DNA from: Chloroflexota bacterium
GTDB taxonomy: Bacteria > Chloroflexota > Dehalococcoidia > Lucifugimonadales > Australimonadaceae
Length of the DNA: 64,000 nt
Assembly (NCBI GenBank): GCA_028874795.1
Contig: JAPPHT010000020.1
Coordinates: forward strand, 472-64,471
Reading direction: 5' to 3'
Position numbers and translations under genes: made by a program. The first letter of the stretch is position 1, and each line of letters begins with the position of its first letter. The notes beneath the pieces are model-generated. The model was not told the origin of the DNA. It did not search any database and worked only from the letters and a program-made list of their open reading frames with translations. Shown piece by piece: positions 2,588 to 32,615 of the stretch.

Positions 2588-5554
<2,967 letters not shown>

Positions 5555-19898: not shown

Positions 19899-20492
19899 TC
19901 ACAGCGCTTCGAGCGCCGCCACCGCCTCCTCCGTCGAGACCACCTGCGCGAACGTGCCCATGTTCAGCAGCGATGCCTGGTGGTTCTCGGTGCGCCCGTT
20001 GCAGGCGTCGCCAACGACGATGCTTTCGAAGTCCCGCTCCCGTGCGTCGCGCACCGTGCTCTCGACTCCCGCCTGTGTCGCGATGCCCGCCACGATGAGC
20101 GTCGACACGCCCAGCCGCCGCAGCCATTTATCCAGCGCCGTCCCCGTGAAAGCGCTCATCCCGCCGCCCTTGCGGATGAGGAACTCGCCGGGCAGCGGCG
20201 CGAGGTCGTCGATGATGTCCGCCCCCCACGTGCCGTCGCGCAGCGAGCCCAGCGACTTCGCCCGTCCGTGCCTCGCGGCGTCGAGGTAGTCCTCTCGCAG
20301 GAAGTGGCCGGTGAAGAAGACCGGCAGACCGGCGCCGCGGGCCGCCGACAACAGGCGCACGTGGTTCTGGATGAGTTGCGGCGTGGCCGGGTTGCGACCC
20401 GCTTCGGGCGTGCGTCCGCCCTCCTTCAGGTAGTCGTTCTGCATGTCGTGGCAGACGTACGCAAGCGTCTCCTTGGCGGGCAGTTCGAGCAT
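19899..20492 (-). CDS. isochorismatase-family hydrolase-like protein (nucleophile Cys replaced)
   Basis: HDMQNDY..., K..MSAFTGT, GIATQAGVESTVRDA. The family layout is present but Gly sits where the catalytic Cys is expected. Start MLELP at 20492. Confidence 0.75.
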   Translation of the reverse strand: MLELPAKETLAYVCHDMQNDYLKEGGRTPEAGRNPATPQLIQNHVRLLSAARGAGLPVFFTGHFLREDYLDAARHGRAKSLGSLRDGTWGADIIDDLAPLPGEFLIRKGGGMSAFTGTALDKWLRRLGVSTLIVAGIATQAGVESTVRDARERDFESIVVGDACNGRTENHQASLLNMGTFAQVVSTEEAVAALEAL

Positions 20493-20656
20493 GGCGCAGC
20501 CTCCGGTGCGTGATCGGGCGCATTGTAGACCGCGCCGCACGTGAAGGGCCCCCGCCTCCTTTGACACCCCACCCGCGCAGTGCTAGCGTCCCATTTGTCG
20601 AAGTATGTGTGTCCGCTCCCACGGGAGCGGACTGCGGAACGGCAAGGAGGCCTGTC

Positions 20657-21751
20657 ATGCCGGTCATCGACTCTGACGCGCACGTCGTTGAGACGGAGCA
20701 GACCTGGGACTACATGGACCCCGGGGACAAGAAGTACCGCCCGCAGGTGGTGGACGACGGCACCGGCGCGAAGTTCTGGAAGATAGACGGCCAGATCCGT
20801 GGGCGCGCCCGCGGCCCGGTCGCCGCCTTCGGACTGTCCGACAAGGTGAAGCGCAACATGGTGACGGACGACGCCAAGCGCTACATGGAGGACATCCCCG
20901 GACGCATCGCCCACATGGACGAGCTCGGCATCGACGTGCAGGTGCTCTATCCCACCATGTACATCGGGCGGATGTGCGAGAACCCGGATACGGAGATCGC
21001 GCTCGCCAAGAGCTACAACCGCTGGCTCGCCGACATCTGGCAGCAGAGCAAGGGCCGCCTCCGCTGGACTTCCATCCTGCCCCTCGCCACGATGGACGAG
21101 GCGCTGGCGCAGCTGCGCTGGTCCGCCGAGCACGGCGCCTGCGGCGTCACGATGCGCGCCATCGAGGACGAGCGGCTGCTGATCGACGAGTACTTCTACC
21201 CGGTCTACGAAGAAGCAGCACGTCTGAACCAACCGATAACCGTCCACATCGGAAGCTCCAACGTCTACATCCGCAACCTCATGGCCAAGGACGGCATCGG
21301 CGGCACCTTCGGCGGCCTGCGTCTGATGTCCGTTGCCAGCTTCCACCAGCTCATCACCACGGGCACCCCGAAGAAGTTCCCGGACCTGCGTTGGGGCTAC
21401 ATCGAGGCGAGCAGCCAGTGGCTCCCCTACGCCATCCACGACCTGCGCCGAAGGCTGGAGACGCGGGGCCGCGAACTGGAGGAGGACGTGCTCGGTGCGT
21501 ACAACATCTGGGTGACGGCACAGACCGACGACAACCTCGTCGACGTGCTGAAGTACGTCAACCACCGTCACATCCTGATCGGCACGGACTACGGCCACCA
21601 GGACCAGTCGAGCGAGATCGAAGCGATGCGCATCATCAAGGAGGAGGGCGGCCTCGCGCCTGGCATCGTCGACGACATCATGGGCCAGAACGCACTGGAC
21701 TTCTACGGCATCACCGTGGAGTCTCCCGTCCTCGCCGGCGCCGCGGGCTGA
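20657..21751 (+). CDS. amidohydrolase-2 (ACMSD-like) family protein
   Basis: MPVIDSDAHVVE metal-binding start, ...GTDYGHQD. ATG at 20657 with AAGGAGG 7 nt upstream. Confidence 0.8.
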   Translation: MPVIDSDAHVVETEQTWDYMDPGDKKYRPQVVDDGTGAKFWKIDGQIRGRARGPVAAFGLSDKVKRNMVTDDAKRYMEDIPGRIAHMDELGIDVQVLYPTMYIGRMCENPDTEIALAKSYNRWLADIWQQSKGRLRWTSILPLATMDEALAQLRWSAEHGACGVTMRAIEDERLLIDEYFYPVYEEAARLNQPITVHIGSSNVYIRNLMAKDGIGGTFGGLRLMSVASFHQLITTGTPKKFPDLRWGYIEASSQWLPYAIHDLRRRLETRGRELEEDVLGAYNIWVTAQTDDNLVDVLKYVNHRHILIGTDYGHQDQSSEIEAMRIIKEEGGLAPGIVDDIMGQNALDFYGITVESPVLAGAAG

Positions 21752-21811
21752 CGGAGCCGTTGCAGACCGCGCCCGCACCGTACGGAAGTTCCAGCATAGG
21801 GAGGAAAGCTG

Positions 21812-23176
21812 ATGTTGACTGCTGAACAGAACGACCGGCTCACCAGAGTCGGCCCCGGCACCCCGACCGGCGAACTGATGCGCCGCTACTGGCACCCCAT
21901 CGCCGCCGTAGCCATGATGAACGACCGTGCCACCAAGCCCATCCGCCTGCTCGGCGAGGACCTCATCCTCTACAAGAGCAACAGGGGCGTCTTCGGGCTG
22001 GTCGACAACTACTGCCCCCATCGCCGCATGGGCATGGTCTACGGCATCCCGACCGACGAGGGCATCCGCTGCGCGTATCACGGGTGGATGTTCGACGAGA
22101 CCGGCCGCTGTCTCGAACAGCCCTACGAGGAGACCGAGGCGCCGGACAACCGCTTCAAGGACAAGGTGCGTATCAAGGCGTACCCACTGCAGGCGAAGGC
22201 GGGCCTCATCTTCGCCTACCTCGGCCCTGCGCCCGTGCCGCTGCTTCCCAACTGGGACGTGTTCGCGCTCGACAACGTCGTGCGGGACATCGGCTACACG
22301 GAGCTCCCGAGCAACTGGCTGCAGTGTCAGGAGAACTCGCTGGACCCCGTGCACTCAGAGTGGCTGCATGGCGAGTGGGCGAACTACATCCTGCAGATGC
22401 GCGGCGAGGGCGACAAGGTGCGCAAGCGGTATGAGAACGAGCGCATCGGCTTCGACAAGTTCCAGTACGGCATCTACAAGCGCAGGCTCGTCAAGGGCGG
22501 CAGCTACGAGGACGGCGAGTGGGCGCAGGGACACCCCATCGTCTTCCCCTACTTCCTCCGGCAGGGCGGCAGCGGCACCGCCATCGACACCTGGGACGGC
22601 AGGCGCGGCGGCGGCAACCCCGGTGTCGGCCCATCGTTCCAGATACGCGTGCCACTGGACGACACGCACACCGGCCACTGGTGGGTGATGTGCCACGCGA
22701 AACTGGAGGGCGATCCCGACCAGCGCGACGAGGACGTGCCGCTCTTCTTCCCGCCCCTCATCCAGTTGGCCGAGGACGGACGGGTGCGCTTCGAGATACT
22801 CGACTCCAACTCGGCGCAGGACGTCGCTGCGTGGATCACGCAGGGCGCCATAGCCGACCGCACGAAGGAGTCGCTCGGGCGCTCGGACAAGGGCATCATC
22901 ATGTTCCGGCGCATGCTGGAGGAGAACATCCGCATCGTCGAGGACGGCGGCGACCCCATCAACACGTTCCGCGACCCGGCGTCCAACGTCTACCTCGGCA
23001 TGGACACCGAGCACAAGTCCCGCCGGAACGAGCAGTACGAAGAGCGCGGCGAGGGGCAGAAGGGGATCAGGCGCCAGGGCATGGCGAGCAAGTACAGCCC
23101 CATCCTGAACCAGCGCGGCGTTGAGGGCGGCGCGGACTCTATCGAGCGTCGCAAGCAGGTGGGCCAGGCCGTCTAG
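21812..23176 (+). CDS. Rieske non-heme iron oxygenase, alpha subunit-like
   Basis: CPHRRMGMVYG...CAYHGWMF Rieske ligands and DPVHSEWLH mononuclear iron motif. Confidence 0.85.
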   Translation: MLTAEQNDRLTRVGPGTPTGELMRRYWHPIAAVAMMNDRATKPIRLLGEDLILYKSNRGVFGLVDNYCPHRRMGMVYGIPTDEGIRCAYHGWMFDETGRCLEQPYEETEAPDNRFKDKVRIKAYPLQAKAGLIFAYLGPAPVPLLPNWDVFALDNVVRDIGYTELPSNWLQCQENSLDPVHSEWLHGEWANYILQMRGEGDKVRKRYENERIGFDKFQYGIYKRRLVKGGSYEDGEWAQGHPIVFPYFLRQGGSGTAIDTWDGRRGGGNPGVGPSFQIRVPLDDTHTGHWWVMCHAKLEGDPDQRDEDVPLFFPPLIQLAEDGRVRFEILDSNSAQDVAAWITQGAIADRTKESLGRSDKGIIMFRRMLEENIRIVEDGGDPINTFRDPASNVYLGMDTEHKSRRNEQYEERGEGQKGIRRQGMASKYSPILNQRGVEGGADSIERRKQVGQAV

Positions 23177-23198
23177 CCCAACACGAGAGGAGAAGGTC

Positions 23199-24380
23199 AT
23201 GCTGACGAAACAGGACAACGAGAAGCTCACCCGCGTGGGCCCTGGCACGCCCGCGGGCGAACTGCTGCGGCGCTACTGGCATCCCATCGCCATCGCTTCC
23301 GAGATCACGGAGGAGCGCCCCACGAAGGCCGTCCGCATCCTGGGCGAGGACCTGGTCATCTTCCGCGACAAGTCCGGGCGCTGGGGTCTCCTCGCCGACC
23401 ACTGTGCGCATCGCAGCGCGTCACTCGTCTACGGACGCGTGGAGGAGCGTGGCATCTCCTGCGCCTACCACGGCTGGCTGTACGACACAGAGGGCAACAT
23501 CCTGGAGACGCCGCCCGAGAAGAACGAGGCGATCATGCGCTCCGTGAAGCAGCCCGCCTACGACTGCAAGGTCTACCTCGGCGTCGTCTGGGCGTACATG
23601 GGGCCGAAGCCCGCGCCGGTCTTCACCCCGTTCGACACGCTCGTGCGGGAGGACGGACGGCGCAAGATACTCGTCCATCCCGTGCTGGACTGCAACTGGT
23701 TCCAGGCCATGGAGAACTCCATGGACCCGGCGCACCTGCAGATCCTGCACCAGGAGTACTACGCGCGCGGCCAGCGCGCGCCCGTGAACACGACGCGCGG
23801 CTTCACCGACGACGTGGACTCGTTCGAGTTCTACCTCACCAACTACGGCCTGATGAAGAAGCGCACCTACACGAACGGCGTCGTGGACGAGCACCCGGTG
23901 CTCTTCCCCTCCATCCTCCGGCAGGGGCCAAGCACCCAGTTCCGCACGCCCATAGACGACGAGCACACCTGGCACGTACACATCAACTTCTGGCTCACCG
24001 AGGACGGCCAGCCCAACGAGACGACCTGGGACCCGCCCGTCGAGTACATCGAGCCGTACAAGGAACCCGCGGACAAGAGCCACCCCCACGCCTGGTACGA
24101 CCGCCGCTCCGTCCTCTCGCAGGACCACATGGCGTGGGAGACGCAGGGCCCCATCACCGACCGCTCGGTCGAGCACCTCTCCTACTCGGACCGGGGCGTC
24201 GTCCTGCTGCGCCGCACGATGTTCGAACAGATGGAGCGCGTCGCCCGCGGCGAGGACCCCATGGGCGTCATCCGCGACCTGGACCACCCCGTCGTCGACA
24301 CCAACATCGACGAGGACGTCTGGCAGAAGCAGCCCACCCACCGCTGGACGGCGCCCGGCGCCGCCCCCACCCGGGCATAG
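23199..24380 (+). CDS. Rieske non-heme iron oxygenase, alpha subunit-like (paralogue)
   Basis: CAHRSASLVYG...CAYHGWLY and DPAHLQILH. It shares its N-terminus (LTRVGPGTP.GELLRRYWHPIA) with the upstream paralogue. Confidence 0.85.
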   Translation: MLTKQDNEKLTRVGPGTPAGELLRRYWHPIAIASEITEERPTKAVRILGEDLVIFRDKSGRWGLLADHCAHRSASLVYGRVEERGISCAYHGWLYDTEGNILETPPEKNEAIMRSVKQPAYDCKVYLGVVWAYMGPKPAPVFTPFDTLVREDGRRKILVHPVLDCNWFQAMENSMDPAHLQILHQEYYARGQRAPVNTTRGFTDDVDSFEFYLTNYGLMKKRTYTNGVVDEHPVLFPSILRQGPSTQFRTPIDDEHTWHVHINFWLTEDGQPNETTWDPPVEYIEPYKEPADKSHPHAWYDRRSVLSQDHMAWETQGPITDRSVEHLSYSDRGVVLLRRTMFEQMERVARGEDPMGVIRDLDHPVVDTNIDEDVWQKQPTHRWTAPGAAPTRA

Positions 24381-24402
24381 GGGCAAGCGGCAGACAGTAC
24401 GA

Positions 24403-24450
24403 CGTGAGCCCCGCGATAGCGGGGCTCACGTACTGCACGCGTTTTTCTTT
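24403..24450 (+). terminator. rho-independent terminator
   Basis: 12-bp stem CGTGAGCCCCGC-GATA-GCGGGGCTCACG followed by GTTTTTCTTT. It sits between convergent genes. Confidence 0.7.
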
Positions 24451-24474
24451 GGCGTTCCGGGCGTGCACTGACCC

Positions 24475-25206
24475 CTACCGCCACTCCTCGTACAGCGGGT
24501 CCTCGTCCACGAACGCACGCACGATGCCGTCGTAGACCAGCCAGAAGATGTCGAGCGTCGCGTTCAGCGACTCCCGCACGGACTGCTGCTCCAGGTCGCT
24601 CACCGCGTACTTCTCGATCACGTACGGCCCCACCTTCATGTGCTCCTCGTCGACCGACATGTGCAGCGTCCAGTACAGGATGTCGTCGCTGTCGCGCTCG
24701 AAGCCGTAGTGGTTGACGAGGCCGTTGACCACGCGGTTCATCCGGCCGCTCGCCGTGCCCTCCAGCGCGAGCCCCTGCGAAGCGTACAGCTCCAGCCAGG
24801 AGCGCTGGCCTATGAGGAGCTCACGCCAGTTCAGCAGGCCGCGCGTCTCGGGCAGCGGCTGTGTCGCGTTGAGTTCGTCGCGCGGGATGCCGGCCGCCTC
24901 GGCGAAGCGCATGTACAGCTCCTTGTGGCCCGCGGTGCCGGTCTCGCCGCCCTCCGCTTCCTCGGAGAGGTTCTCGAACCACATCCGCTCCAACTCCGTG
25001 TCCTGCGGGGAACGCGCGAACATCGCCGCGATCGGCTTCGGGAACGGCTTGGGGAAGAGCAGGTAGAACTGCTTGATGAAGCCGTTGAGCTGGGGGCGGG
25101 TGAGCTGCCCCTCCTCGATCATCTCGAACAGCGGGTGCTTGCGGCTGTGCTTCCGCTCCTGCAACTGCTGCATCTCGGCGAGAAACTCTCTGGTATCGAG
25201 CGCCAT
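24475..25206 (-). CDS. TenA/PqqC-like (heme-oxygenase-fold) iron-containing redox enzyme family protein
   Basis: 243-aa all-helical protein, HPLFEMI...QFYLLF...EEAEGG...H.ELY, reminiscent of the PqqC/TenA family. Confidence 0.55.
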   Translation of the reverse strand: MALDTREFLAEMQQLQERKHSRKHPLFEMIEEGQLTRPQLNGFIKQFYLLFPKPFPKPIAAMFARSPQDTELERMWFENLSEEAEGGETGTAGHKELYMRFAEAAGIPRDELNATQPLPETRGLLNWRELLIGQRSWLELYASQGLALEGTASGRMNRVVNGLVNHYGFERDSDDILYWTLHMSVDEEHMKVGPYVIEKYAVSDLEQQSVRESLNATLDIFWLVYDGIVRAFVDEDPLYEEWR

Positions 25207-25272
25207 CGGTGCGCCTCCGTGCGGTCAAGGATGCGGCGGCAAGTATACGCGCCTACGGCATCCTCCTGTACC

Positions 25273-26223
25273 ATGCGCCCCATGATCGAGTTCGGCGTCT
25301 CGCTCCCCACCATCGGCATGGGCGACCCCTCCGCCGTGCGGCTCGTCGCCGAGCAGGCCGAGGCGTCCGACCTCGACTCCGTCTGGGCCGCCGACCACAT
25401 CGTGCTCCCCACCAGCCACACCTCCACCTACCCCTACAGCGCCGACGGCGAGTTCCTCATCGCGCCCGGCCTGCCGTTCCTCGACCAGTTCACGACGCTC
25501 GCCTACGTGGCGGGTTTCACGTCGCGTGTGAAGCTCGGTACCGCAGTCACGCTGCTGCCGCTGCGCCACCCGCTCGCCGTGGCGAAGACGACCGCGACGC
25601 TGGACGTCCTCTCCGGTGGGCGAAGCATCCTCGGCGTCGCGGCGGGCTGGCTCCGCGAGGAGTTCGAGGCGCTTGGCCTCGACTTCGAGCACCGGGGCGC
25701 CACGCTCGACGAGAGCCTGCGCCTCGTGCTCGAAGCGTGGACGGAACAGGAGGTGCGGTTCGAGGGGCGCTTCTTCAACGTGCAGGGGGTTGAGTCGTAC
25801 CCGCACCCGGCACAGGAGCCGCATCCGCCCATCTGGGTGGGCGGCCACACGAAGCCGGTCATGCGCCGCGCCGCGCGCTACGGCGATGCGTGGTTCCCGC
25901 CGCTGTTCGCCACGACGCCGAGGAAGCTCGCGGAAGCGCACCGCGCGATGAACGAGGAGGCGGCCCAGCACGGACGCGGCGACGATGCGGTTGCGCTCTC
26001 GCTCCGCGTGCTCGTCGACCTGCGCAGCGAACCGGACCTTGCGGGCGCGGAGAAGCGTGGCGCGCTCACCGGCGAGCCGCACCGCATCGCGGCGACCCTC
26101 GCGGAGTATGCGGAGGCGGGCGTCAGCCACTTCGTCTTCCTGCCGCAAGCGCGGAGCCTCGCCGACGTGCAGCGGACCATAGACACCCTCAGCGCGAAGG
26201 TCGTGCCGGAGTTGCGGGCATGA
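25273..26223 (+). CDS. LLM-class (luciferase-like) flavin/F420-dependent oxidoreductase
   Basis: IEFGVSLP...DSVWAADHIV...TSRVKLGTAV layout. ATG at 25273 or 25282. Confidence 0.8.
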   Translation: MRPMIEFGVSLPTIGMGDPSAVRLVAEQAEASDLDSVWAADHIVLPTSHTSTYPYSADGEFLIAPGLPFLDQFTTLAYVAGFTSRVKLGTAVTLLPLRHPLAVAKTTATLDVLSGGRSILGVAAGWLREEFEALGLDFEHRGATLDESLRLVLEAWTEQEVRFEGRFFNVQGVESYPHPAQEPHPPIWVGGHTKPVMRRAARYGDAWFPPLFATTPRKLAEAHRAMNEEAAQHGRGDDAVALSLRVLVDLRSEPDLAGAEKRGALTGEPHRIAATLAEYAEAGVSHFVFLPQARSLADVQRTIDTLSAKVVPELRA

Positions 26224-27071
26224 CGCTGGGCGACTACCAGACCGGCGCCATCGAGGTCGCTCCCGGCGCCTACGCTTTCATCCAGGCAGGCGGCGCGACC
26301 GATGCCGGCTTCCTCGTGGAGGAGGAGGGTGTCGTCATCATCGACACGCTCATGACCCCGACCCTTGCGGAGCGGCTGTTGGCCGAGGCTCGCCGAGTGA
26401 CTGACAAGCCCGTGCGCTACGTCGTGAACACGCACTGGCACGGCGACCACCTCTTCGGGAACGCGCTCATGCCCCAGGCGCCGATCATCGCCCACGACAC
26501 CTGTCGCGACGACCTCGCCGCCGAGTGGGACACGCACCGCGAGTTCCTGCGCGACCTCTACCCCGCGATCTACGAGGAGTGGCGCGACCTGCCGCAGACG
26601 CCCCCCAACCTGACGTTCAGCGATACGCTCACGGTCCACCTTGGCGACAGGCCCGTCGAGTTGCGCTTCTTCGGCAGGGCCCACACGCGCGGCGACATCG
26701 CCGTCTACCTGCCGACGGAGGGCGTGCTCTTTGCGGGCGACCTCTCCTTCCACCAGTACATCCCGAACGCGCGCGACGGCTTCCCGCTCGCGTGGACCGA
26801 CGCCGCCGAGCGCGCGGCACAGGTGGAGTGCGACGTCGTGGTGCCGGGACACGGGCCGCTGGGGACGCGCGCCGACCTGGACGAGATGCGCGAGTGCCTG
26901 CTGCGCATCACGGCACACGGCGAGCGCAGCTTTGCCCGGGGACGCTCAGAAGAGGAGGCGCTGGCGACCCTTGACCTCGGCCCGTTCTCAGGCTGGGGAC
27001 GGCAGGAGGACCGCCTCCCGCCGCTCATGTCCCGCCTCTACCGCGAGCTCCGCGGTGAGTTCGTGGAGTAG
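26220..27071 (+). CDS. MBL-fold metallo-hydrolase
   Basis: VVNTHWHGDHLFGN (HxHxDH) motif. ATG at 26220 overlaps the upstream TGA. Confidence 0.8.
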   Translation: MTLGDYQTGAIEVAPGAYAFIQAGGATDAGFLVEEEGVVIIDTLMTPTLAERLLAEARRVTDKPVRYVVNTHWHGDHLFGNALMPQAPIIAHDTCRDDLAAEWDTHREFLRDLYPAIYEEWRDLPQTPPNLTFSDTLTVHLGDRPVELRFFGRAHTRGDIAVYLPTEGVLFAGDLSFHQYIPNARDGFPLAWTDAAERAAQVECDVVVPGHGPLGTRADLDEMRECLLRITAHGERSFARGRSEEEALATLDLGPFSGWGRQEDRLPPLMSRLYRELRGEFVE

Positions 27072-27074
27072 ACC

Positions 27075-27872
27075 CTAGTCCCACCTCGAGTTGGGCTTCG
27101 GCTCCAGTTCGCCGTCCACGTACACGTCCGCCTTGCCCTGCGGGAAGCAGACGTACCCCGCCACCTTCGCCGACTCCACGGTCGGGTCGCGGTACGTCCA
27201 GGCGATGTCCTCGAACGTCTCGCCGCCAACGTCCGCGTGGAAGTAGCTTGCGAGCCCCTTGTAGGTGGAGCCCAGCACCCGCTCGCTCGGCCGCAGGAAG
27301 TCCTTCCGCACGTCCTTCCCGGGGATGTAGTAGCGGTGGGGCAGCCCGGTCTCCAGCAGCATGACAGGCTGGTCCGTCTCGGCAACGGTAACGCCGTTCA
27401 GTTCGACGCGGACGTGGCGGGAGCTCTGCAGGCAGTCTACGCGTGTGTACGGGTCTTTCGGCCCGATGAAGACCTCCTCGTCCTCCTCGAACCAGCCGTC
27501 CATCCTGTTCCAGTAGAACGCCAGGTAGTCCCGCGCGTCCACGAAACCCTCCAACGGTTCCTGGTACGCCCAGACCGCGTTCTCCTCCACCCGTTCGCCG
27601 ACCTTGACGCTCCAGTACTGAGCGTCTCCCTTGATCGGTCAGAAGGTGCTCTTATCGGTCTCTTCCAGCAGGTCCATCCGCACGTCGGCCATCGGGAAGT
27701 AGTAGACGGGCTGGTGCCCTGTCTCGTACATGATGACCGCCTGCTTGCTGTCGACGAGCGTCTCTCCGCCGAATGTCGCGCGTATGCGCTTGGGCGTCGG
27801 CTCCAGGAAGGCGACATGTTCTGCGATGCCCTTTGCCGCGCCGATCCCGAATGCCCTGAAGACTTGTGTCAT
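27075..27872 (-). CDS. tandem DUF427 protein interrupted by one in-frame TGA (27639..27641): candidate selenoprotein or pseudogene
   Basis: ORFs 27639..27929 and 27075..27590 share a frame. ATG at 27872 has AAGGAGG 5 nt upstream. The combined product has two DUF427-like halves (...YYFPMADVRMDLLEETDKSTF-TGA-PIKGDAQYWSV... and ...YYIPGKDVRKDFLRPSE...STYKGLASYF...). Confidence 0.6.
27598..27641 (-). other. UGA plus SECIS-like stem-loop
   Basis: mRNA reads UGA-CCGAUC-AAGGGA-GACGCUC-AGUACUG-GAGCGUC-AA-GGUCGG. It forms a 6-bp lower stem (one G.U), an internal loop and a 7-bp perfect upper stem starting 12 nt after UGA. Confidence 0.45.
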
Positions 27873-27956
27873 ACCGTCCTCCTTTCGCCTTTCCGTCGTC
27901 CCTGCGCAGGCCCGCGCTTCAGCGCGCAACCTCGCTCCTGTTCGCCTCGCGCGCCC

Positions 27957-29015
27957 TCAGTTCCAGAGGGTGATGCCCATGAGCACGTGGCCGTGGTGCA
28001 CATCCTCGATGGCCTCGTTGATCTGCTCGAAACCGTACCGCTTCGTGATGAAGGAGCCAAGTTCGATGCGGCCCTGCGAAACGAGGTCGAGCACCTCCGT
28101 GACGTCGCTCGTCCGCCGCATCGCCACGCCCGTCACCTTGATCTCCTTGAATGCGAAGCGCGAGTCGTTGATCGTAATAGGGCCAGGCGGCATCGAGCCG
28201 ACGATGGTGGCGGTGCCCGTGGGACGCGTTGCCCGCACGATCTGGTCCGCGGTTACGGGGTTGCCGATGGCCTCGAACGTCTTGCGCGCGCCTCCTTTGG
28301 TTATCTCGATCGTCGCTTCCACCGGGTCCTCGGAACTCGCGTTCACGATGTGGGTTGCCCCGTAGGAGAGCGCGGCCTCCAGTTTGCTGCCGACGAGGTC
28401 CACCGCGACGATGGGGTACGCGCCGAAGAGCCGCAGCAGTTGGATGATGTTCAGCCCGACGCCGCCGCAACCGATGACCATTGCCGACTCGCCCGGTGCG
28501 AGGTGCGCGCCGTTCTTCACCGCGTTGTACGCCGTCGTGACCCTGCAGCCCACGATGCAGGACTCCTCCAGCCCCACGCCCTCCGGCAGGTGGAAGACCA
28601 TGTACCCCGGGACCGACAGCAGTTGCGTGAAGCCGCCGACGTTCCAGCGTGTCACAGTCCCTCCGTCCATCCTGCGGAACGGGGAGCCCGTCGGCCTCCG
28701 GTTACAGAGGTTCGACAGCCCGGACGTGCAGTACTCGCACCGCCCGCAGGAGAACCGCATGCCCACGGTTACGTGGTCGCCGTCCTTGAAGTGGTCCTGT
28801 TGGTTCTTGCCCGCGCCCACGACCACCCCGGAGACCTCGTGTCCCAGCACCGTGGGCGGCGACGACGGTATGGAGCCGTCCTGCACCTTCAGGTCTGTGT
28901 GGCAGACCCCGCAAGCGGCCACCTCGAGCAGCACGTCGTCGTCGCCAACGTCGGGCGTCTCGAACTCCTCGATGACGAGGTCCTGGTCGATGCCCTGCAA
29001 GACCGCTGCCTTCAT
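27957..29015 (-). CDS. zinc-dependent alcohol dehydrogenase (MDR family)
   Basis: ACGVCHTDL, GHEVSGVVV, CGRCEYC structural zinc site and GCGGVGLN Rossmann motif. Confidence 0.9.
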   Translation of the reverse strand: MKAAVLQGIDQDLVIEEFETPDVGDDDVLLEVAACGVCHTDLKVQDGSIPSSPPTVLGHEVSGVVVGAGKNQQDHFKDGDHVTVGMRFSCGRCEYCTSGLSNLCNRRPTGSPFRRMDGGTVTRWNVGGFTQLLSVPGYMVFHLPEGVGLEESCIVGCRVTTAYNAVKNGAHLAPGESAMVIGCGGVGLNIIQLLRLFGAYPIVAVDLVGSKLEAALSYGATHIVNASSEDPVEATIEITKGGARKTFEAIGNPVTADQIVRATRPTGTATIVGSMPPGPITINDSRFAFKEIKVTGVAMRRTSDVTEVLDLVSQGRIELGSFITKRYGFEQINEAIEDVHHGHVLMGITLWN

Positions 29016-30190: not shown

Positions 30191-30296
30191 ATCCAGCCCG
30201 TCCCCGCCGATGGCGCGCCGCAGTCCAAGATGGCACACTTAACCAACGCTCCCACGCCCTGTGCGGCGGGTGCGCGAACACCGACAGGAGTACCGA

Positions 30297-31613
30297 ATGT
30301 CCGTCCCCCTCGAATCGAAAGTCTTCCCCATCACCACCGCCATCAGCGGCGACGGCCACCTGGAGATCGGCGGCTGCGACGTCACCGCGCTCGCCCGCGA
30401 GTTCGGGACGCCGCTCTACGTGTTCGACGAGGCGACGCTCCGCAACCAGGCGGAGGGTTTCCTGAATGCCTTCCGTTCCCGCTACGCCAACAGCCGCGTC
30501 GTCTACGCCTGCAAGGCCTTCGTCAACGTGCCGCTCGCGCGCTACCTCGCGGGCCTTGGCCTGGGGTTCGACGTGGTCTCGGGAGGCGAGATCGCCGTGC
30601 TACGCGCCGCCGGAGTCGACCTCGCCACGGTCGATTTCCATGGCAACAACAAGACGCCTGAGGAGATCAAGCAGGCCGTCGCATGGGGTGTCGGCCACTT
30701 CGTGATCGACAGCTTCCACGAGCTGCGCCTGCTGGATGAGGCCGCGGGCGCGGCCGGGTGCACGCAGCCGGTCCTCATCCGGGTCTCTCCTTCCATAGAC
30801 CCGCACACGCACCGCCTCACTACAACGGGAGTGCTCGACAGCAAGTTCGGCTTCCCCATCGAGACCGGCGACGCCGAGGAGGCGGTGAAACAGGTGATGG
30901 CTGCGCCCAACCTGGACCTGCGGGGCCTCCACTTCCATCTCGGATCGCCCATCTTCGAGTTGGAGCCGTACACCGAGGCGATCGAGCGCGTCATACGCTT
31001 CGCGGCCCGTATGGGAGAGTACGGTCTGGACATGCGGCGCTTCAGCCCCGGCGGTGGCTTCGCCATCGCCTACACGGAGGACGACGCGCCGCCCGCGATC
31101 ACCGACTACGCCGAAGCCATCGTGCAGGCCCTCACGGACGGCTGCGCCGCGAATGGCCTCCCGCAGCCCGAGTTGACCGTTGAACCCGGGCGCTCGCTCG
31201 CCGGTCCCGCCGGCGTCGCCGTCTACACCGTGGGCGCCATCAAGGACGTGCCCGGCGTCCGCACCTACGTCTCCGTGGACGGCGGCATGGGCGACAACAT
31301 CCGCCCCGCGCTCTACGGCTCCCGCTACATCGCCATCGCCGCCAACCACGCCAACGACGCAGCCACCGAGACCGTCACCATCGCCGGCAAGTACTGCGAG
31401 TCCGGCGACGTACTCGTTCACGACGCCTCGCTCGCCCCGGTTCGTGCGGACGACCTCATCGCCATTCCAGCGTCAGGCGCTTACGCCCCAGCCATGGCAA
31501 GCGTCTACAACATGAATGGACGCCCCGCCATCGTCATGGTCGGGGACGGCTCGGCCACGCTCATCCGCCGCCGTGAGTCCTACGAGGACCTCATCGCGCA
31601 GGATGTCGTCTGA
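30297..31613 (+). CDS. lysA: diaminopimelate decarboxylase
   Basis: PLP-dependent group IV decarboxylase layout (YACKAF, HFHLGS, EPGRSL, CESGD). ATG at 30297 with AGGAG upstream. Confidence 0.9.
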   Translation: MSVPLESKVFPITTAISGDGHLEIGGCDVTALAREFGTPLYVFDEATLRNQAEGFLNAFRSRYANSRVVYACKAFVNVPLARYLAGLGLGFDVVSGGEIAVLRAAGVDLATVDFHGNNKTPEEIKQAVAWGVGHFVIDSFHELRLLDEAAGAAGCTQPVLIRVSPSIDPHTHRLTTTGVLDSKFGFPIETGDAEEAVKQVMAAPNLDLRGLHFHLGSPIFELEPYTEAIERVIRFAARMGEYGLDMRRFSPGGGFAIAYTEDDAPPAITDYAEAIVQALTDGCAANGLPQPELTVEPGRSLAGPAGVAVYTVGAIKDVPGVRTYVSVDGGMGDNIRPALYGSRYIAIAANHANDAATETVTIAGKYCESGDVLVHDASLAPVRADDLIAIPASGAYAPAMASVYNMNGRPAIVMVGDGSATLIRRRESYEDLIAQDVV

Positions 31614-31616
31614 CCC

Positions 31617-32615
31617 ATGCTCAGCCTCCACGGCCAGCAGCTCCCCGTCCGGACCCTGGAACGGTCGCTCTCGGAAGGCCGTCTCCACCACGCATACCTG
31701 TTCATAGGACCGGCGCACCTGGGCAAAACCACGCTCGCGGTGCAGTTCGCACAGGCGCTGAACTGCGACGCGGACGCGCCTCCATGCGGCGCGTGCTCCG
31801 GTTGCACACGCATCGCCGAGGGCAACCATGCGGACGTGCGCCTCATAAGCCTCGGCGAGGAGGCAGGTTCCATCGGCATCGGCGCGGTGCGGGAGATCAT
31901 CAACTCTGCCCACCTGCGTCCCTACGAGGGGCGGACCCGCGTTTTCATCATCGCCGAGGCCGACCTGCTCACCCGGGACGCGGCCAATGCCCTGCTCAAG
32001 GTGCTCGAGGAACCCCCGGACGACGTGGTGCTCATACTCGTCGGCAATAGCCTGGACAACCTGCTGCCGACCGTCCGCTCCCGCTGCCAGACGCTCCACT
32101 TCCATCCCCTCTCGGTCAGCGAGGTCGCCCACATCCTGCAGGAAGAGCGCGGGGTGAGTCCGCAGCACGCCGAAGTGCTTGCGCGTCTCTCTCGGGGCTG
32201 CATCGGCTGGGCCCTCGCCGCAACCGGAGACGACACGATGTACGCGTCCGTGCACCAGCGGATCGAACAGATCGTCGATGCCATCGATGGCGGGCTTGAG
32301 GAGCGGTTCGCCTACGCAGGAGAGCTCGCGCGGCGCCTCGATCGCGACCGCGGCGCCGGGCGGGAGGAACTCCTCCTGTGGCTCCGGTGGCTGCGAGACA
32401 TCATGCTTGTGCAGCAGGGGAACGCCGCAGGCATAACCAATCTCTCCTGGCGCGAGGTCCTGGAAGGGCAGGCCGCCGCCCTGCAACCGGCTGATGTCGT
32501 CCGGTGGACCCACAACGTCAACCGGACCATCGAGGCCCTGGAGCGGAACGCCAATGTCCGGCTCGCTCTGGACGTCTTCATGCTGGAAGCCCCGCTCCTG
32601 AAGGCGGGGGCGTGA
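31617..32615 (+). CDS. holB: DNA polymerase III subunit delta-prime
   Basis: HAYLFIGPAHLGKTTLA Walker-like motif, zinc module CGACSGC, and the VFIIAEADLL and SRCQ sensor motifs. Confidence 0.85.
   Translation: MLSLHGQQLPVRTLERSLSEGRLHHAYLFIGPAHLGKTTLAVQFAQALNCDADAPPCGACSGCTRIAEGNHADVRLISLGEEAGSIGIGAVREIINSAHLRPYEGRTRVFIIAEADLLTRDAANALLKVLEEPPDDVVLILVGNSLDNLLPTVRSRCQTLHFHPLSVSEVAHILQEERGVSPQHAEVLARLSRGCIGWALAATGDDTMYASVHQRIEQIVDAIDGGLEERFAYAGELARRLDRDRGAGREELLLWLRWLRDIMLVQQGNAAGITNLSWREVLEGQAAALQPADVVRWTHNVNRTIEALERNANVRLALDVFMLEAPLLKAGA

Follow-up and report, generated by a model that had tools for sequence, protein, structure and literature searches.

A tandem-DUF427 gene with an in-frame UGA in Chloroflexota very probably encodes a member of a previously unlisted selenoprotein family

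The 64,000-nucleotide stretch of Chloroflexota DNA analysed here (the window) carries on its minus strand a tandem-DUF427 gene, 27872..27075, which is interrupted by one in-frame TGA and, judged from comparative sequence data, very probably encodes selenocysteine (Sec) at that codon, making it the gene of a selenoprotein family not listed before. In the proposed mechanism, UGA codon 78 would be decoded as Sec in a 265-residue, two-domain beta-tent protein, and Sec would take the place of the signature Cys in T-x-C-P-x-K-G-D-A-x-Y-W. A 41-nt hairpin 3' of the UGA would act as a bacterial Sec insertion sequence (SECIS) element, its 7-bp upper stem and A-G-U-A-Y-U-G loop serving as the binding site of SelB loaded with Sec-tRNA(Sec). 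The ribosome would pause at UGA, receive the tRNA from SelB and continue translating as far as the TAG at 27075. An earlier reading of the window by eye (the sequence-only reading) had taken a UGA at a conserved Cys together with an adjacent SECIS as the mark of a selenoprotein gene, an interpretation now supported by conservation of the TGA, by selection on the coding sequence and by constraint on the hairpin. The elements concerned are as follows.

27075..27872, minus strand: complete coding sequence (CDS) of the putative tandem-DUF427 selenoprotein, 265 codons including Sec78 plus a TAG stop, with same-length, same-frame orthologues in 30 genomes.
27878..27884, minus strand: Shine-Dalgarno sequence AAGGAGG, read from the sequence, with a 5-nt spacer before ATG 27872.
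27639..27641, minus strand: in-frame TGA, the proposed Sec78 codon, aligned with the Cys of 12/12 close homologues and present as TGA in 40/40 Sec-clade loci besides that of the window.
27598..27638, minus strand: SECIS-like hairpin inside the CDS, 41 nt directly 3' of the TGA, with 93.8% of cells paired across 16 distinct sequences.

Two minus-strand open reading frames (ORFs), 27639..27929 and 27075..27590, lie in a single shared frame, and the path from ATG 27872 to TAG 27077..27075 is interrupted solely by the TGA at 27641..27639. The residues around this codon are ...EETDKSTF-TGA-PIKGDAQYWSVKVGE, and the predicted read-through peptide over Sec78 is STF-U-PIKGDAQYWSVK. The 265-residue read-through product matches Pfam PF04248 (DUF427, renamed NTP_transf_9) in two stretches (E = 8e-65), and its score of 215 bits against a gathering cut-off of 22.1 places it in DUF427. 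Sequence and Pfam therefore bear out the earlier proposal of one two-domain DUF427 gene that starts at ATG 27872 behind AAGGAGG and spans both ORFs; the second domain reads GSTYKGLASYF, without Cys, as had been noted for STYKGLASYF. Public annotation gives two fragments, 77 aa and 171 aa, instead of one gene, and the 171-aa ORF of the window has an exact match in assembly GCA_034423295.1, where the gene context is identical. Fragments of this kind are labelled 'DUF427 domain-containing protein' in the databases, with lengths of 171, 155, 142 or 95 aa (for example, NCBI MCY4449804.1), and two 90% clusters of them (P0001 and P0027) hold 120 and 87 member sequences. A crude screen of the window for other TGA-joined ORFs returned just same-frame neighbour genes and antisense ORFs; the candidate at 30261..32615 consists of adjacent same-frame genes, one lysA-like and one holB-like.

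The TGA stands at the column of a conserved Cys. All 12 close full-length homologues (266-303 residues, 52-55% identity) have Cys there, within the motif T-x-C-P-[FY]-K-G-D-A-S-Y-W, as does the crystal structure PDB 3DJM, in agreement with the statement in the sequence-only reading that this column holds the Cys of T-x-C-P-x-K-G-x-A-x-Y-W. Protein searches also returned several 171-residue matches (78-93% identity) that span only the C-terminal 65% of the query, and in the contigs behind them a 77-aa ORF is each time separated by a gap from one of 171 aa. Scanning one genome per species located a full-length relative in 30 Dehalococcoidia, SAR202 and other Chloroflexota genomes (L005-L034; 68-92% identity), many of them complete chromosomes (including OZ242210.1, OZ220673.1, OY760183.1, OZ244813.1, OY764542.1, OZ244718.1 and OZ253588.1), and the column reads TGA in 30/30. 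Among 80 of at least 554 metagenome stretches encoding a relative, 9 contigs carry TGA (L085-L093; 51-90% identity, gene GC as low as 40%) and the remaining 71 loci (L094-L164) carry TGC or TGT; loci L035-L084 have TGC or TGT wherever the site could be located, or Ser or His in domain 1. The TGA forms from the 30 genomes and 9 contigs together span 51-92% identity and 40-66% gene GC. TGA and Cys codons thus alternate among orthologues in the way that the sequence-only reading had suggested looking for, with TGA in the 30 genomes and 9 contigs and TGC or TGT in distant homologues, which gives the Sec/Cys pair used as a criterion for a bacterial selenoprotein gene. Neighbour-joining analysis of 150 tandem-DUF427 proteins places all 38 distinct Sec forms in one clade, to which Cys forms are sister (the 'U' labels of L052 and L108 in the tree are artefacts, the site being TGC in both). 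The Sec form appears to have arisen once from a Cys form, in the ancestor of a Chloroflexota (SAR202/Dehalococcoidia) clade, and to have been kept since.

The sequence directly 3' of the TGA folds as the earlier reading had described, into a 41-nt hairpin (27638..27598) with a 6-bp lower and a 7-bp upper stem, the latter beginning 12 nt after UGA, and the loop AGUACUG; its minimum free energy (MFE) in the window is -18.3 kcal/mol. Published rules for bacterial SECIS (bSECIS) elements specify a loop of 3-9 nt that has G as its first or second base, a stem of 4-16 bp, a distance of 16-37 nt between UGA and loop and an MFE <= -7.5 kcal/mol (PMC13188914). The hairpin agrees with every one of them, with a loop of 7 nt whose second base is G and third U, a stem of 7 bp, a UGA-to-loop distance of 19 nt and an MFE of -17 to -18.3 kcal/mol. 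Its parts are listed here.

27638..27633 with 27603..27598, minus strand: lower stem CCGAUC/GGUCGG, with an internal loop at 27632..27627.
27606..27626, minus strand: upper stem-loop, the putative SelB-binding core, delimited by bSECIS criteria and frozen synonymous sites.
27626..27620, minus strand: 5' arm of the upper stem, GACGCUC, 7 bp, beginning 12 nt after UGA.
27619..27613, minus strand: apical loop AGUACUG, beginning 19 nt after UGA.
27612..27606, minus strand: 3' arm of the upper stem, GAGCGUC, pairing with GACGCUC.

The hairpin folds in 31/31 genes (16 distinct sequences), and the 93.8% of paired cells compares with 29-45% in controls with the 3' partners shifted by 1-3 columns. Across these 31 genes, the lowest synonymous codon entropy is found in the 13 codons starting at the TGA (0.28; mean over the gene, 0.75), entropy averages 0.33 over the 12 degenerate codons of the hairpin (Mann-Whitney p = 0.003), and several codons are frozen, namely Gly GGA (31/31), Asp GAC (30/30), Ser AGC (31/31) and Val GTC (31/31). 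Several changes in the stems preserve pairing. In the low-GC forms L090-L093, GAC to GAU accompanies GUC to AUC, a compensatory replacement of a C-G by a U-A pair; overall, C-G becomes U-A in 3 sequences and G-C becomes A-U in 1, and 2 pairs have changed on both sides. L093 additionally has AGC to AGU (G-C to G.U) and a lower stem re-paired as CCAAUU/GAUUGG, and in L026 an Asp-to-Gly substitution turns an A-U pair into G.U. These comparisons indicate that the hairpin is constrained as RNA, with few compensatory changes.

Several results speak against a SECIS and a selenoprotein here. The stability of the hairpin is not beyond chance (z = -1.25; 22/200 shuffles equal or better) in sequence of 65% GC, and for that reason its significance comes from the comparative data only. 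Covariation is modest, 34/500 shuffles reaching the observed score and most stem pairs being invariant, and because the stem doubles as coding sequence for the conserved peptide G-D-A-x-Y-W-S-V, protein and RNA constraints are partly confounded. Scored with a covariance model of the hairpin (R1), the Cys form in L158 and L160 reaches 37.7 bits; Sec sites score 59-77 bits and all other Cys sites <=23 bits, a separation that is partly circular, the model having been trained on Sec forms and including the TGA and clade-specific codons. Rfam, in which bacterial SECIS elements are mostly not modelled, gave no match in the window at gathering thresholds, and a permissive scan over the hairpin gave two chance-level matches only. 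Neither selA and selB nor tRNA-Sec (ARAGORN) and selD (tblastn with an approximate E. coli SelD query) turned up in the 64-kb window and 850 kb of related sequence, a span short of whole genomes and uninformative about them; the statement in the sequence-only reading that no Sec machinery gene lies in the window accordingly stands, and ARAGORN found no tRNA of any kind in it.

In the Cys form of L158 (886-933) and L160 (1678-1725), the Cys codon TGT is followed by GAUGCU...AGCAUC, which is part of the hairpin, and half of the SECIS stem is specified there by the peptide G-D-A-S-Y-W-S-I. This partial hairpin may represent a pre-adaptation for Sec acquisition. A contrast in hairpin energy between Sec and Cys forms was also drawn, and its p-value is not relied on, many wrong sites having been picked in distant loci.

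The indirect evidence that the carrier lineage decodes Sec is good. UGSC is a known selenoprotein family (model NF041046), and in three sister genomes a UGSC gene that has TGA in the canonical place within HGD-U-GSC lies ~1.3 kb from the DUF427 gene.

L003, 4239-4784, minus strand: UGSC gene with TGA at 4490..4488, annotated as split 98-aa and 61-aa ORFs.
L021, 4773, and L024, 369: TGA of the UGSC genes in the other two sister genomes, at HGD-U-GSC.

The UGSC hairpin, GAGC-GGUCU-GCUC, has a loop that begins 18 nt after UGA, and its geometry in L003, L021 and L024 is that of the DUF427 gene; the two genes may form a small selenoprotein gene cluster. In BSepDB, two Dehalococcoidia metagenome-assembled genomes (MAGs) rank in the top ten of bacteria by number of selenoproteins (49 and 46 genes), and one of these MAGs has an isolate name in the style of a universally unique identifier (UUID), as do MAGs of the carrier set. 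Chloroflexi were listed as Sec users already in 2006.

Of the competing explanations, the one that survives best, although improbable, is that the UGA is recoded without Sec, either as Cys by a Sec-like tRNA(Cys) or through read-through by a near-cognate tRNA (Trp, Cys or Arg) stimulated by the hairpin. Mukai and colleagues are said to have described in 2016 that UGA is read as Cys by Sec-like tRNA(Cys) in some bacteria, the sequence data do not identify the inserted residue, and read-through can in general be promoted by a hairpin downstream of a stop codon. However, the geometry and loop of the hairpin (G at position 2, 19 nt) fit a bSECIS of the SelB type, as does the UGSC hairpin of the sister genomes; the class includes very selenoprotein-rich genomes; and it is hard to explain why a costly UGA would be kept so long just for Cys, with TGC one mutation away. 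The recoding is specific to the site. TGA is the terminator of 8/24 confidently coding long ORFs in the window, that of the adjacent alcohol dehydrogenase (ADH) gene included, and being an ordinary stop for these genes it is not reassigned genome-wide. The 31 Sec-form genes themselves terminate in TAG (25), TAA (5) or TGA (1), compared with TGA in 8/24 of the ordinary window genes, and the rarity of TGA terminators may reflect avoidance of a second UGA.

Purifying selection acts on both halves of the gene. The pairwise ratio of nonsynonymous to synonymous substitution rates (dN/dS) is 0.13-0.41 for the N-terminal 77 codons and 0.06-0.36 for the 187 codons that follow the TGA, at dS values of up to ~1.5 among orthologues, and the TGA is the sole disruption, with 0 further stops or frameshifts in the 31 genes. 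A truly split gene, in which UGA would end a 77-residue product and a separate C-terminal protein would start from, for example, GTG 27590, is what gene callers annotate in every genome as 77-aa and 171-aa ORFs, and the GTG restart they use for the latter occurs at +17 codons in 20/31 genes. This arrangement is very unlikely because the GTG is unconserved and the 16 codons from TGA to GTG encode the family motif P-I-K-G-D-A-Q-Y-W-S-V, conserved as protein. No start codon is conserved, L027 and L029 lack any in-frame start within 39 codons after the TGA, the frame is always kept, and a break at this point would run through the middle of a beta-tent domain, right at the signature residue. That the TGA is a fresh nonsense mutation in a young pseudogene, or a sequencing or assembly error, as the sequence-only reading had allowed, would need one base change (TGC or TGT to TGA) and would suit a hairpin that alone is statistically unremarkable, but its probability is negligible because 30 species genomes, each assembled independently, and 9 metagenome contigs share the identical TGA, which also stands behind fragment clusters of 120 and 87 member sequences and persists to dS ~1.5, the frame being intact and dN/dS far lower than 1 in either half.

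The predicted selenoprotein is a two-domain member of the DUF427 fold, with the following features.

27510..27785, minus strand: DUF427 domain 1 (aa 30-121), with Sec78; best Pfam stretch, AlphaFold2 (AF2) model versus 3DJM at a template-modelling (TM) score of 0.9.
27123..27440, minus strand: DUF427 domain 2 (~aa 145-250, boundaries approximate); second Pfam stretch, model strands E145-E252.
27269..27267, minus strand: Ser202 codon TCC, replacing the family Cys, from residue tabulation.
27432..27434, minus strand: Cys147 codon TGC, specific to the Sec clade, a candidate resolving residue, from residue tabulation.

The AF2 model (predicted local distance difference test, pLDDT, 83.6) has two beta-rich domains, each of which superposes on 3DJM with a TM score of ~0.9 and a root-mean-square deviation of 1.2 Å; 3DJM is also found by sequence (E = 5e-14). 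This structure (Rhodobacter sphaeroides, 2008) is the sole solved DUF427 structure, and it shares with the window protein, which has two significant Pfam domains, the fold and the signature motif, with Cys at the Sec position. The next meaningful fold matches are yippee, Mis18 and YPEL5, in keeping with the beta-tent class, and no MsrB or GFA structure is among the significant fold matches of the AF2 model. Like DUF427, MsrB/SelR and GFA belong to the beta-tent (MSS4-like) fold class, and those enzymes rely on a catalytic Cys; mammalian MsrB1 has Sec, a precedent for exchange of an active-site Cys for Sec in this fold. In sequence, DUF427 does not significantly resemble MsrB or GFA. It is grouped with MsrB, GFA, yippee and CULT as a beta-tent domain but lacks the MsrB/GFA zinc site (PMC4287342). 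Sec at the motif Cys would imply that this residue is a catalytic redox or nucleophilic centre. Cysteines were tabulated in 38 Sec forms and 112 Cys forms.

Position 78 (domain 1): Sec in 38/38 Sec forms; Cys in 65% and Ser in 32% of Cys forms.
Position 202 (domain 2): Ser in 35/38 Sec forms; Cys in 112/112 Cys forms.
Position 147: Cys in 37/38 Sec forms; Cys in 1/112 Cys forms, which mostly have Val or Ile.
Position 242: Cys in 38/38 Sec forms; Cys in 57% of Cys forms.

The Sec forms thus differ from Cys-form DUF427 in having Sec in domain 1, mostly Ser for the domain-2 Cys and an extra Cys147; the domain-2 Cys is still present in L089, L092 and L093, which are deep-branching Sec forms. From this pattern, the Sec clade would have lost the otherwise invariant domain-2 Cys and gained Cys147, and its chemistry seems to have become centred on domain 1, with Cys147 as a possible resolving residue.

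Directly upstream of the DUF427 gene, on the same strand, lies a Zn-dependent ADH gene, an arrangement found in 17 distinct Sec-form genomes.

27957..29015, minus strand: Zn-dependent ADH gene, 84 nt upstream of the DUF427 gene, ending in an ordinary TGA.

The two genes are probably co-transcribed. The best NCBIfam matches of the Zn-ADH are NDMA-, mycothiol- and glutathione-formaldehyde-type ADHs, all below curated cut-offs. In known systems, gfa adjoins a class III ADH gene, and the pairing of Zn-ADH and DUF427 is reminiscent of that of GFA and class III ADH. Neighbours vary, and a 78%-identity subgroup (L002:3820-5952, plus strand, and L023) has a catalase-peroxidase KatG gene (PF00141) downstream, where an oxidative-stress context may replace the ADH pairing. 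A tentative and rather doubtful proposal for function is that DUF427 is a selenol/thiol-dependent enzyme with the motif Cys/Sec as its catalytic centre. In the SAR202 clade, after loss of the domain-2 Cys, Sec78 and Cys147 would form a selenenylsulfide couple in domain 1, and the protein would partner the co-transcribed class-III-like Zn-ADH, for instance to detoxify or activate an aldehyde or a different electrophile, as GFA does with glutathione-dependent formaldehyde dehydrogenase. If true, this would be the first biochemical function for a widespread domain uncharacterised since its 2008 crystal structure. The wider surroundings (window 20000-27000 and L165:11368-16934) are typical of SAR202 catabolic islands, with an F420/LLM-class luciferase-like oxidoreductase, a metallo-beta-lactamase-fold hydrolase (SoxH-related), a TenA/haem-oxygenase-like protein, two Rieske/LigXa oxygenases and an amidohydrolase.

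Compared with known selenoproteins, the mechanism is ordinary (UGA plus an intragenic SECIS, presumably read by SelB), and the novelty lies in the family. Like canonical bacterial selenoprotein genes (UGSC, NF041046; FdhA), the DUF427 gene has UGA at the Cys of its homologues, a stem-loop that follows directly within the ORF, in which one of the first two loop bases is G and the loop begins 19 nt after UGA, one predicted Sec per protein, and Cys orthologues elsewhere. The Sec form of DUF427 has neither a thioredoxin-like fold nor UxxC/CxxU, its motif being T-x-U-P-I-[KR]-G-D-A-[QR]-Y-W. A catalogue of May 2026 comprises 119 prokaryotic selenoprotein families or subfamilies, and PF04248/DUF427 does not appear in its Table 1 (PMC13188914). 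NCBIfam, which holds curated selenoprotein models, gave 0 matches for the DUF427 protein; the catalogue and NCBIfam are in line with the remark in the sequence-only reading that DUF427 is not an established selenoprotein family. In the literature searched, no paper links DUF427, PF04248 or NTP_transf_9 to selenoproteins or reports functional data, and work on SAR202 and selenoproteins likewise yielded no earlier account, an unpublished listing elsewhere being possible.

New selenoprotein families turn up regularly, and with this one the prokaryotic selenoproteome would gain a non-thioredoxin, beta-tent family from the abundant marine lineage SAR202/Dehalococcoidia. Hundreds of database entries would be 77-aa and 171-aa fragments of one gene, an error that a family model making an exception for Sec would remove. 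The hairpin stem, largely preset by the peptide G-D-A-x-Y-W-S-[VI], illustrates how a SECIS can arise within coding sequence. For DUF427, a domain of unknown function with thousands of homologues and a solved crystal structure, Sec would be the first functional clue; since Sec nearly always occupies catalytic redox positions, its presence here would mark the conserved Cys of DUF427 as a likely active-site residue.

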